Shown here piece after piece: positions 614 to 16,191 of a stretch of DNA of 37,474 nucleotides. This DNA is from Promethearchaeota archaeon. GTDB lineage: Archaea; Asgardarchaeota; Lokiarchaeia; Sigyniarchaeales; SOKP01. The stretch spans positions 1-37,474 of the forward strand of contig JBHLNT010000024.1 in NCBI GenBank assembly GCA_048941265.1, in the 5' to 3' direction. The position numbers and the translations under genes are program-made. The first letter of the stretch is position 1. Every line of letters starts with the position of its first letter. The notes beneath the pieces were generated by a model, which was given only the letters and a program-made list of their open reading frames with translations, had not been told where the DNA came from and ran no database searches.

Positions 614-1147
614 TTGCAGAGTTCATGGATTTTTAAAGTAATTGTAGCAGGTGCCGGCGGGGTTGGAAAAACAGCAATGATAACTCGCTATTGTACCGGA
701 AAATTTGAAGAAGGATATAAAATGACAATAGGTGCAGGATTCCATACAAAATCAGAAACTCTTGACACTGGAGAAGAAGTAAAGATGCAAATTTGGGATT
801 TTGCGGGAGAACGAAGATTTCGTGAACTATTACCTGATTATTGTAAGGGTGCTAGTGGTGCATTTATTTGTTTTGATATCACAGATTATGATACATTTAG
901 GCAAATACCAGAATGGTTGAAAATAATTCGCCAAAAAGCTGGCTTTATACCTATAATTCTTATGGGAATGAAATGGGATTTACCAAGTCATGAAACTGAT
1001 TATGATACTGCTAATGAATATGCTGAAAAAGCAAAGTGTAATCAATGCGTTTTTAGCTCGTCCAAGCAGGATATCAATATAAAAGAATCCTTTCAAGCTA
1101 TGGCGAAATGGCTAATATATTACGCCACAGAATTGGAAGAAAAATAA
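614..1147 (+). CDS. Rab/Ras-like small GTPase (Asgard type)
   Basis: G1 GAGGVGKT, G2 TIG, G3 WDFAGE, G4 MKWD, G5 SSK; FKVIVAG start and GASGAFICFDIT are Rab-like. No C-terminal Cys prenylation motif. TTG start. Confidence 0.92.
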   Translation: MQSSWIFKVIVAGAGGVGKTAMITRYCTGKFEEGYKMTIGAGFHTKSETLDTGEEVKMQIWDFAGERRFRELLPDYCKGASGAFICFDITDYDTFRQIPEWLKIIRQKAGFIPIILMGMKWDLPSHETDYDTANEYAEKAKCNQCVFSSSKQDINIKESFQAMAKWLIYYATELEEK

Positions 1148-1309
1148 AAATTCAACTTCTTCTTCTCTTTTCTCTAATAATTATCGTATTATGATCAATT
1201 CCAATTTTTGTAAGGAACGAACGAATTTAGAATAAATATAAACTTAAATCACAGCTAACCTTATTTAACAAAAAAAAACCCGTATTGTAAGATTTATCTT
1301 ATAGGGAAA

Positions 1310-13805: not shown

Positions 13806-14069
13806 TCTATCATTCTTGCATACTTTTATTTCTATTAAATTTTCAATAAATTTCAAAATATCTTTTGCTAACTACTATAAAAAAAATGGATTTGTATTTT
13901 AAACCTTTGTAAGTTTCAAAATAAACTATAAATTTAATTTTTTAAAATTAATCAAAATCAAATAAATAAGATTTTTAATATTAAATTTTATAATATTAAT
14001 AACGACTATTATTACTTAATTTTCATTCATATAAAATCTCTAAGGAAATTACTCAAAAGGTGATATAAC

Positions 14070-14474
14070 ATCCAGTTCGGAAGTGACCTTGGAATAGATC
14101 AATCTGATATTGAGAAGATTAGCCCACAAATTACGTTTATCACGTCTAATGCTGATATTGAGGCAATAGCATTAGTTTCACAAGAAGGGTATCAAATAGC
14201 GTTTAGTGCTTTACCACAATATCATGTTGATGGCGATCAATTTTGTGGGCTCGCATCAGCATTATTGATGACAGGGCGGTCAACAATTCAGAGTTTATTT
14301 CAAGAGGATTTAAGTGAAATCATAGTGCGGGCACAAGATGGGTATATTGTTATATCTAATGCAGGTAGGTTGGTGATTGTATGCGCAGGTACAATGATTG
14401 ATACTTTAATGAAAACTGTGAAAGTAATGAGAATCGCTGCGAAGAATTTATATAAGATTTTTGAAGGCAGATGA
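14070..14474 (+). CDS. Roadblock/LC7 domain protein (134 aa if started at ATC 14070)
   Basis: Frame is open upstream of the track start (14265) back to TGA 14061. It encodes DIEAIALVSQEGYQIAFSA...DGDQFCGLASALL, the first half of a roadblock fold. AGGTGA at 14058-14063 precedes ATC. Confidence 0.8.
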   Translation: MQFGSDLGIDQSDIEKISPQITFITSNADIEAIALVSQEGYQIAFSALPQYHVDGDQFCGLASALLMTGRSTIQSLFQEDLSEIIVRAQDGYIVISNAGRLVIVCAGTMIDTLMKTVKVMRIAAKNLYKIFEGR

Positions 14475-14549
14475 GCAAAATTTTCTGATAAAAATTAATT
14501 AACTTTTTAAATCTTGATATATAAATTTTCTTAATATTTTTCTATGATA

Positions 14550-14660
14550 TGGTTTAGCACTAATGGTACCTGTAAATAATTTGGCTTGGCGTTGGCAGTG
14601 GACTTGGCGTTGGCGATAACGCCTCTGCATTGGACTAAACCACGAAATCTTTCTTTTTTT
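14550..14660 (+). promoter_or_regulatory. Putative Trp-responsive attenuator leader (alternative helices plus U-tract)
   Basis: TGGTTTAG(14550-57)/CTAAACCA(14635-42); CTAATG/CATTGG; GGCGTT x2 versus AACGCC(14618-23); TCTTTCTTTTTTT 14648-14660; TATA-like TATATAAA at 14518-14525. Confidence 0.7.
14563..14619 (+). CDS. Trp-rich leader peptide MVPVNNLAWRWQWTWRWR
   Basis: ATG 14563, TAA 14617-14619; five TGG codons among the last ten; ends 171 nt upstream of trpB2 on the same strand. Confidence 0.85.
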   Translation: MVPVNNLAWRWQWTWRWR

Positions 14661-14790
14661 GAAAAAAATTCTTGAAAATTTGACATAATTTTATTAAAAT
14701 TATCAAATGTGCATTACTGATTTTGATTTCCAAAATTAAGATGAGACACATTTAAAATGTGCTTAAAAAAAATAAGATAAGGTAATTAAA

Positions 14791-16191
14791 ATGGTGGATT
14801 ATTTTAATTCTAGGATATTATTACAACCCAATGAGGTACCAAAGGAATGGATAAACATATTACCAGATTTACCATCTCCTATGACGCCCTTAGTTAATCC
14901 AATGGATGGGAAACCAGCACCACCAGAACTGGCATTTGCAATATTTCCAAAAGAGTGTGTCTTACAGGAAGTATCTCAAGAGCCACTAATTCCCATTCCT
15001 AATGAATTGAGGGAAATCTATGCAAAAACCTATAGACCAAGTCCACTCCATCGTGCATTAGGTTTAGAGAAAGAACTAGGAATAGAGGGAGAAAATATTC
15101 AGATCTATTATAAAAATGAGTCTTATTCTCCAACAGGTTCTCATAAACCTAATACTGCCATAGCTCAAGCCTTCTATGCCAAAAAAGATGGATTAGAGGA
15201 ATTAGTTACAGAAACAGGAGCTGGACAATGGGGCTCAGGGCTTGCTTATGGATGTAATTTATTTGGGCTTAAATGTACGGTCTATATGGTAAGAGCAAGC
15301 TTCGATCAAAAACCAGGCAGAAAGATTTTAATGAGGGCTTACGATGCTGAAGTTCATGCGAGTCCATCGAGATTTACTGAATCAGGAAAAGCATTTTTAG
15401 AAAAAGTTCCCAATCATCCTGGAAGTTTAGGAATAGCTATTTCAGAAGCTGTTGAGCATAGCATGAGAAGTGACAAAATAAGATATTCTCTTGGTAGTGT
15501 AGTGAATTTTGTTTTGCTGCACCAAACAATAGTGGGTCAAGAGGCAAAAATTCAACTAGATAAAATAGGGATTAAACCTGATATTGTAATTGGTTGCATG
15601 GGAGGAGGTTCTAATTTTTCGGGCTTAATGATTCCTTTTGCAAGAGATAAACTGCATGGAATTCTTCCAGATGTCGAAATTATCGGGGTAGAACCAAGAG
15701 CATGCCCAAGTGTTTGTAAAGGAGAGTATAGATGGGATTTTGGTGATACCTCCATGAAAGGTCCTATTGTAAAAATGCATACTTTGGGCCATACATTTAT
15801 TCCAAGTCCGATTCACGCAGGGGGCTTAAGATATCATGGTATAGCACCAATAATATCGATTTTACATAATAATCATATCATATCTTCTGCAATGCATCAT
15901 CAGAGGGAAGTTATTGAAGCCGGAATTCGATTTACAAAAGCTGAAGGAATAATCCCTGCTCCTGAAACTGCTCATGCAATAAAAGAAACAATAGATCAAG
16001 CATTAAAAGCAAAAGAAAATAATGAGAAAAAAGTAATCTTGTTTAATTTCAGTGGACATGGATTTTTAGATCTGTTAGCTTATAAAGAATACATGACTGG
16101 AGATTTAAAAGATTATGAATTACCCTCAGAAGATATTCTAAAAGCACTTTCCTCACCTGAAATGCCAAAAATAGATGAATCTCAATTTTAA
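14791..16191 (+). CDS. trpB2: Tryptophan synthase beta chain, TrpB2 type (PLP enzyme)
   Basis: YKNESYSPTGSHKPNTA (PLP lysine), TETGAGQWG, HPGSLGIAISEA, GGGSNF, IHAGGLRYHG, FNFSGHG; long N-terminus typical of TrpB2; no adjacent trpA. Confidence 0.95.
   Translation: MVDYFNSRILLQPNEVPKEWINILPDLPSPMTPLVNPMDGKPAPPELAFAIFPKECVLQEVSQEPLIPIPNELREIYAKTYRPSPLHRALGLEKELGIEGENIQIYYKNESYSPTGSHKPNTAIAQAFYAKKDGLEELVTETGAGQWGSGLAYGCNLFGLKCTVYMVRASFDQKPGRKILMRAYDAEVHASPSRFTESGKAFLEKVPNHPGSLGIAISEAVEHSMRSDKIRYSLGSVVNFVLLHQTIVGQEAKIQLDKIGIKPDIVIGCMGGGSNFSGLMIPFARDKLHGILPDVEIIGVEPRACPSVCKGEYRWDFGDTSMKGPIVKMHTLGHTFIPSPIHAGGLRYHGIAPIISILHNNHIISSAMHHQREVIEAGIRFTKAEGIIPAPETAHAIKETIDQALKAKENNEKKVILFNFSGHGFLDLLAYKEYMTGDLKDYELPSEDILKALSSPEMPKIDESQF

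Follow-up and report, generated by a model that had tools for sequence, protein, structure and literature searches.

The window, a stretch of 37,474 nucleotides corresponding to contig C189 of a Promethearchaeota assembly (5.0 Mb in 361 contigs, 30.5% G+C, 91% complete), carries a short reading frame packed with Trp codons, a U-rich tract, a hairpin designated HP2 and, 3' of this leader, trpB2, a gene for a TrpB-like PLP enzyme whose match to NF009057 reached 639.7 bits (cut-off 366). Among the trpB2 matches listed, which were mostly bacterial, two Promethearchaeota loci were usable, and the best loci from Promethearchaeota MAGs showed 76% and 72% identity. NFACT, PyrI and an orthologue of aCPSF1/FttA (870 bits) are also encoded in the genome, and no match to trpD above the cut-off was found in this 91% complete assembly. 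Upstream of the leader, the frame 14064-14474 (+) is open for 137 codons, with its first ATG, GTG or TTG only at 14265. A ribosome-binding-like word, AAGGTGA, stands at the start of this frame, and a non-canonical start codon is therefore possible. The upstream gene is syntenic in relatives, and a 69-aa part of its frame had no Pfam match. The features of the locus are collected in Table 1.

Table 1. Positions of leader, hairpin and gene features within the window.
Feature	Position	Strand	Description and basis
BRE/TATA-like box AACTTTTTAAAT	14501..14512	+	Putative leader promoter; TATA-like words peak across 35 loci
Closing stem, 5' arm	14550..14565	+	TGGTTTAG (14550-57) and CTAATG (14560-65), including the AUG; own-versus-foreign arm test
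Leader ORF	14563..14619	+	Peptide MVPVNNLAWRWQWTWRWR, then stop (14617-19); Trp codons start at 14587, 14593, 14599, 14605 and 14611
Two copies of CTTGGCGTTGGC	14585-96, 14603-14	+	Alternative 5' strands of the inner hairpin
Inner hairpin GGCGTT/AACGCC	14606..14623	+	Stop codon in the loop; repeat analysis and covariation
Closing stem, 3' arm	14628..14642	+	CATTGG (14628-33) and CTAAACCA (14635-42); own-versus-foreign arm test
U-rich tract TCTTTCTTTTTTT	14648..14660	+	A7 next at 14662-68; sequence, and enrichment in 35 loci
HP2	14705..14753	+	Apical loop 14726-30 within conserved TTGATTTCCAA; MFE -12.0, z -2.58
TATA-like TTTAAAA	14751..14757	+	Possible second (trpB2) promoter, directly past HP2; most loci have an A/T box in this position
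trpB2	14791..16191	+	NF009057 profile match

TATA-like words were clustered 65-50 nt 5' of the leader AUG, where 41 of the 98 words found across 35 loci fell into two 5-nt bins. With the usual archaeal spacing between box and start, the transcript probably begins near 14535, about 15 nt 5' of the 5' arm of the closing stem. The A/T box past HP2 holds a constant position 34-40 nt 5' of the gene start codon, and a separate trpB2 promoter may lie near 14751-57. RNA contigs came from one metatranscriptome that contained 5% of the sampled words and covered parts of trpB2, with 14402-14758 outside its coverage; the RNA contig of a relative begins at 14776, a boundary of a kind that cannot show a transcript start.

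The Trp-codon reading frame and the genes that follow it

Trp accounts for five of the 18 codons of the leader ORF, compared with 1.16% of residues in long ORFs. The ORF was present in all 35 matches used from R1, a covariance model of the leader element, with two to six Trp codons each. The distance from AUG to the first Trp codon was eight codons in 18 of the 35 leaders, and the stop codon followed the last Trp codon by one or two codons in 33 of them. The peptide core WQW is almost invariant (TGGCAGTGG), the N-terminus is conserved no further than Met-Ala-Thr, and the residues around the Trp codons vary. Between the Trp codons, leaders favour codons that are rare in the genome: Arg is encoded by CGT 38 times, CGA 8, CGC 6 and AGA 0 times, compared with 51% AGA and 11% CGT genome-wide, and Gln by CAG 30 times and CAA 6 times, compared with 80% CAA genome-wide. 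This codon choice points to selection at the RNA level. A genome-wide search for Trp-rich short frames returned mostly matches lying out of frame within genes. The sequence comparisons support the view that the leader is a real, conserved Trp-codon ORF preceding trp genes.

R1 matched 30 of 61 related genomes, including 27 of 36 in the same family; elsewhere it matched 2 of 24, both with E above 0.2. Among trpB2 loci of the same family, a Trp-rich short ORF lay 136-256 nt upstream in 14 of 20 and was lacking in six. The gene after the leader is trpB2 in most loci, trpD-trpC-trpF-trpB in three genomes (G014, G041 and G018) and trpE in another (G009). In three further genomes (G024, G012 and G003), an ORF of 80-87 aa follows the leader, and each of the three encodes TrpB1 about 3 kb further on; the ORF of G024 is followed by trpD, C, F, B, A and E. 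An ORF of 80-87 aa between HP2 and trpD (L130:1744-1983, L132:1109-1369(-) and L137:1733-1987) had no NCBIfam match. This genome has three copies of the leader, namely the one in the window, one that runs off a contig end (C307:3-120) and one before a TrpA-like gene (C147:1128-1240). Since the element precedes trpB2, the trpD operon, trpE and trpA across loci, its genomic contexts make it a cis element of a Trp regulon.

A variant leader, MTELNKNCDFYKITWFWIWRWHA, lacking HP2, was observed before trpA or trpE at C147 ~1128-1250 (minus), L139 and L144; its U-rich tract forms the 5' strand of an inverted repeat, AGAATTTCTCTT ... AAGAGAATTCT. Three loci of the same genus (L004, L005 and L006) have lost the leader ORF while keeping HP2 and trpB2 and are natural attenuator deletions; L005 keeps a remnant of the post-stop arm (AACGCCTCTTTCATTGG).

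Nested helices, the U-rich tract and a second hairpin

The preliminary description had proposed one long leader hairpin with a perfectly paired outer stem. Its two arms, TGGTTTAG and CTAAACCA, are indeed 100% complementary over 8 nt, and the adjoining duplex CTAATG/CATTGG has six pairs, one of them U-G, and spans the AUG. In a 36-row model-fitted alignment, changes on both sides were found in six of six pairs of the outermost helix, and the AUG helix was only 49.8% paired, its register differing among loci. Since this alignment leans towards its model and the outer arms shift in register, an alignment-free test was added, in which each 5' arm was combined with its own 3' arm and with those of other loci and the duplex energies were compared. 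The own arms gave -11.65 kcal/mol and the foreign arms -8.26 kcal/mol, a difference reached in 0 of 20000 permutations (n = 35), a count that, like the other permutation counts given here, overstates independence because the relatives are kin. An outer duplex of -9 kcal/mol or below was predicted without alignment in 25 of 35 loci and was weak in the other 10; at least 2 nt of the start codon were paired in 14 of the 25. In most loci, the 3' arm begins 7-13 nt past the stop codon. In the window, the 3' arm region GCATTGGACT (14627-14636) is a 90% copy of GCAGTGGACT (14595-14604) in the Trp run, so that masking of the 3' arm allows the start-codon arm to pair with the Trp run.

Within this stem, either GGCGTT (14588-93 and 14606-11) is 100% complementary to AACGCC (14618-23), a segment overlapping the TAA stop codon, and GCAG (14595-98) and CTGC (14625-28) are both in place to extend the inner hairpin. 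A duplicated arm had also been described, and the repeat is there, with a length of 12 nt, one base longer than originally given. Of the two copies, the distal one paired with a probability of 0.70 and the proximal one with 0.30. A second partner at -5 kcal/mol or below was found in 24 of 35 leaders. An exact duplicate is confined to leaders with five or six Trp codons and one leader with four; the duplicated arm is not general, and is a by-product of the repeated UGG-CGU-UGG. The inner helix (helix 3) was 83.9% paired in the 36-row model alignment, with changes on both sides in three pairs. Own and foreign energies were -10.36 and -9.74 kcal/mol for the inner hairpin (p 0.017, n = 35), and -9.73 and -8.59 for the Trp run with the post-stop arm (0 of 2000 permutations, 29 loci).

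The minimum free energy structure of this leader is the nested hairpin, at -28.9 kcal/mol (RNAfold; z -1.14). As 28 of 200 shuffled sequences folded equally well, the fold energy of the single sequence is not beyond chance. Across relatives, 65.7% of cells in the 36-row model alignment were paired, compared with 58.5% after shuffling (0 of 500) and 36-52% with slid partners, and the covariation score was 0.233, compared with 0.145 in shuffled alignments (0 of 500). With the outer arms out of register, RNAalifold on the model alignment (A3) recovered no more than the 4-bp core of the inner hairpin. In addition, a scan of segment pairs was performed, with ten segments in 29 loci and pairs involving any segment shorter than 5 nt skipped. 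The only three helices it recovered, given with their own-versus-foreign differences, were the 5' arm with the 3' arm (-3.59 kcal/mol), the two strands of HP2 (-3.46) and the Trp run with the post-stop arm (-1.14), each with 0 of 2000 permutations. Among these 29 loci, mutually exclusive terminator and antiterminator helices (1:2, 2:3 and 3:4) were not found, and only nested helices covaried besides the one downstream hairpin, in agreement with the earlier remark that no classical 2:3 antiterminator is evident. Conservation and covariation among homologues had been named as the check on the helices, and both the outer and the inner helices covary across relatives. These comparisons support a nested-hairpin architecture without an antiterminator, in which the ribosome-free leader folds into a single nested hairpin around the ORF, often covering its AUG as well, and is followed by a U-rich tract.

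The end of the outer stem and the T-rich run are 5 nt apart, as previously stated. This 13-nt pyrimidine tract contains a U7 run at 14654-60. Runs of at least five T at +21..+60 after the stop codon were found in 20 of 35 loci and were lacking in 15, compared with 30.5% of background windows; runs of at least four T occurred in 31 of 35 loci, compared with 56% of background, and runs of at least five A in four of 35. The T fraction at +31..+60 was 0.50-0.54 in the 35 loci, compared with a background of 0.39, and in 19 of them a T-rich octamer begins no more than 6 nt from the predicted 3' arm. A bacterial-type terminator scan returned no terminator-like sites, a result that is uninformative for an archaeon. 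The U run is not directly preceded by a GC-rich hairpin; 5 nt separate the stem from the T-rich run, and the loop of the stem contains the whole ORF. Archaeal terminators are described as U-tracts that do not strictly need a hairpin (PMC8716108). That the hairpin promotes termination is an assumption.

HP2 was analysed in 31 sequences aligned with MAFFT and not fitted to any structure. Paired cells made up 89.0%, compared with 79.3% after shuffling (0 of 500) and 23-51% in slid controls, and nine of 13 pairs had changes on both sides; column 16/47, for example, holds AU 18, GC 8, GU 2, UA 1 and UG 1 times. Read on the sense strand, G-U combinations were counted 18 times and A-C combinations five times, and the apical loop is the most conserved part. 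The HP2 model R2 matched 14699-14770 at 76.4 bits, as a single copy in this genome, and had matches in 23 of 40 genomes (22 of 24 within the family, 0 of 15 outside). HP2 is present once per genome, G018 with its three copies being the exception. Its place is always next to the main leader or at a trpB2 whose leader has been lost, and it sits 86-110 nt past the leader stop codon. The pattern of substitutions argues for an RNA helix and not for half-sites read by a protein. Because HP2 covaries as sense-strand RNA and keeps a set distance from the leader, the comparison also argues that leader, HP2 and gene are parts of one transcript. HP2 is a candidate new structured RNA, tied to one locus per genome. 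The CCAA of its loop and the UUGG of the Trp-codon run are complementary.

A weak own-versus-foreign difference of -1.03 kcal/mol (p 0.001, for one of up to 45 segment pairs) was seen for the U region with the HP2 5' strand, and this pairing is weak in the window (-2.8 kcal/mol). In L122, L145 and L116, a segment within or beyond the U-rich zone forms a duplex of -9.6 to -11.2 kcal/mol with the basal 5' strand of HP2. Such pairing of the U region may act as a competitor structure to HP2. An alternative CACAU/AUGUG hairpin past HP2 was not supported, with 45.2% of cells paired compared with 43.0% after shuffling.

A proposed route from tryptophan supply to trpB2 expression

We propose, with confidence about evenly divided between acceptance and doubt, that this leader of a Loki-type Asgard archaeon is a ribosome-gated tryptophan attenuator without an antiterminator. 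The ORF, the three helices, the U-richness, the association with trp genes and the lack of a competing helix are shown by the analysis; that the leader senses tryptophan is likely, and we infer the termination step, every kinetic step and the role of HP2. Transcription would start near 14535 from the promoter about 55 nt before the AUG, and a ribosome would load on the AUG before the 3' arm is made and translate the 18-codon ORF. When charged tRNA-Trp is ample, the ribosome would reach the stop codon and depart, and the RNA would close as one nested hairpin, with the stop codon in the loop of the inner stem and with the outer stem linking the 5' UTR and AUG to the 15 nt that follow the stop codon. 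The closed hairpin would hide the AUG and so prevent reloading, and, with the U-rich tract about 5 nt beyond it, polymerase would stop there, alone or with aCPSF1/FttA. When charged tRNA-Trp is scarce, the ribosome would linger at one of the five Trp codons, which together span about one footprint, melting the inner stem and keeping the outer stem open either by its own bulk or by way of a second ribosome detained on the AUG. Polymerase would then pass through the U-tract into HP2 and trpB2. The ribosome itself would thus take the part of the antiterminator.

Ribosome positions were simulated on the transcript from 14536 to 14647 by forbidding pairing within a 28-nt footprint. The preliminary description had held that a ribosome stalled on the Trp codons prevents the fold or blocks aCPSF1/FttA loading. 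The masking did not bear out the first of these for the outer stem, whose 8-bp helix stayed at a probability of 0.94-0.97 with the footprint on any Trp codon or on the stop codon and was lost only with the ribosome on the AUG. The inner hairpin was lost with the footprint from the third Trp codon onward, and no alternative partner for the outer stem emerged from the masking. A stalled ribosome cannot block the outer stem by competition for pairs and would therefore have to act by bulk, topology or a queued second ribosome. At late Trp codons, its leading edge would lie about 5 nt from the 3' arm, and the eight-codon spacing between AUG and first Trp codon would be compatible with such queuing once the ribosome has reached the second or third Trp codon. 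With a ribosome at the first Trp codons, both arms would be free as polymerase nears the U-tract, and without a bulk effect starvation would then cause termination, the wrong sign. That a stalled ribosome prevents the fold and that the fold causes termination is plausible in this model and has the right sign, and is unexplained by pairing alone.

We regard two other arrangements as improbable, to a similar degree. The locus could consist of two units, with the leader as a self-terminated small gene or sRNA, trpB2 transcribed from its own promoter at 14751-57 and HP2 serving as a palindromic DNA operator. Protein regulators of archaeal trp genes, such as TrpY, exist; the A/T box keeps its place past HP2, HP2 and trpB2 persist where the leader is deleted, and the RNA contig beginning at 14776 gives a weak hint in the same direction. 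An operator would not account for HP2 stems that vary yet stay complementary around a loop that is most conserved, for G-U exceeding A-C by 18 to 5 on the sense strand, or for a hairpin kept at a set distance from the leader once per genome, and the Trp-codon run would be left without an output. In the other arrangement, the ribosome senses Trp and the state of the hairpin sets mRNA stability, processing or the translation of trpB2, possibly by way of HP2 or of a pairing between the U-tract and the A-rich stretch that precedes the ribosome-binding site. The U-richness extends over a broad zone, with a T content of 0.44-0.54 over +31..+110 and no single sharp tract, and the full-length minimum free energy structure pairs the U-tract with the A-rich stretch at ~14765-14777; this pair of regions, however, gave no own-versus-foreign signal among the top pairs. 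The signal of -1.03 kcal/mol (p 0.001) between the U region and the HP2 5' strand speaks weakly for such an output, but the pairing reaches only -2.8 kcal/mol in this window, and the CACAU/AUGUG hairpin was unsupported (45.2% compared with 43.0% shuffled). Mycobacterial poly-Cys leader ORFs have been reported as attenuators of operon expression (10.1101/834739), which fits an output of this kind.

The Trp codons would not be hunger sensors at all if W-Q-W-P-W-R-W were a nascent arrest peptide sensing free tryptophan, as in TnaC, or a functional Trp/Arg-rich peptide. The nearly invariant WQW core and a stop codon close behind the Trp run would suit such a peptide, but the linked genes are biosynthetic and must be induced on starvation, leaders carry anywhere from 2 to 6 Trp codons with varying neighbouring residues, the rare codons point to constraints on the RNA, and the N-terminus is unconserved past Met-Ala-Thr. 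We consider this very unlikely, far more so than either of the preceding arrangements. The ribosome-gated attenuator also allows a bolder form, which we put forward tentatively and hold to be rather less probable than the attenuator as such: a two-part archaeal device without a bacterial counterpart, in which the stem from start codon to post-stop region forms only when free of ribosomes, so that the leader locks itself and dwell time gates the U-tract/FttA site, with HP2, whose invariant loop is complementary to the UUGG in the Trp-codon run, as a further checkpoint or factor-binding site.

Comparison with known attenuators and terminators

Leader-peptide attenuation is a textbook bacterial mechanism that relies on coupled transcription and translation. 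The leader shares with trpL (RF00513) a short Trp-codon ORF on the same strand just upstream of genes for Trp synthesis, a stop codon beside RNA helices followed by a U-rich tract, and the use of ribosome position as a report of charged tRNA-Trp. In contrast to trpL, with its two tandem Trp codons, it is archaeal (Asgard) and has five alternating ones; its helices are nested, the outermost joining the 5' UTR and AUG to the post-stop region; it has neither a conserved 2:3 antiterminator nor a GC-rich hairpin against the U run; and it is followed by the extra hairpin HP2. No Rfam family, RF00513 included, matched at the gathering thresholds, and the best matches at E<=10 were unrelated, with E of at least 0.5. 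In the bacterial pyrBI leader, where the ribosome itself blocks a terminator hairpin, the ORF extends across the terminator, and read-through results from a ribosome that follows closely. As there, no antiterminator helix is involved here and ribosome occupancy would decide the state of the hairpin, whereas the present ORF ends within the hairpin, so that a stalled ribosome would have to hold it open.

Bacterial trpB2 loci likewise have short upstream frames that end in runs of Trp codons (WWW or WWWW in L056, L063 and L066); these leaders differ in being bacterial and in having tandem Trp codons, and were compared by their ORFs alone. Frames ending in WWW, WWWW or WPW before bacterial trpB2 in L056, L063, L066 and L073 are presumably classical attenuators. 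In the mycobacterial short poly-Cys ORFs, too, an ORF packed with one amino acid controls downstream biosynthetic genes, although those ORFs are reported to be bacterial, Cys-sensing and leaderless (10.1101/834739). Arrest peptides of the TnaC type are conserved, stall at their stop codon in response to free Trp and precede catabolic genes; here the downstream genes are biosynthetic, and the peptide varies outside the Trp run.

On the side of termination, the U7 run in a 13-nt pyrimidine tract and the encoded FttA orthologue may correspond to archaeal U-tract termination with aCPSF1 (FttA), for which a run of at least 4-7 U is expected at the transcript 3' end, with the difference that the terminators described need no upstream hairpin (PMC8716108). 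In the literature searched, no description of ribosome control of an archaeal U-tract/FttA site was found, and full-text searches, including reviews searched for 'attenuation', returned no report of an archaeal leader-peptide attenuator. A conserved, covarying Trp leader in Asgard archaea offers a defined 250-nt element for asking whether archaeal ribosomes steer polymerase and how a U-tract/FttA terminator responds to upstream RNA structure. A switch without an antiterminator would show a simpler way to build an attenuator and, if the bolder form is true, the archaeal lineage closest to eukaryotes has translation-coupled control of transcription. Set beside these systems, the leader has the look of a tryptophan gauge read by ribosomes, a kind of device so far described for bacteria alone, but built differently.
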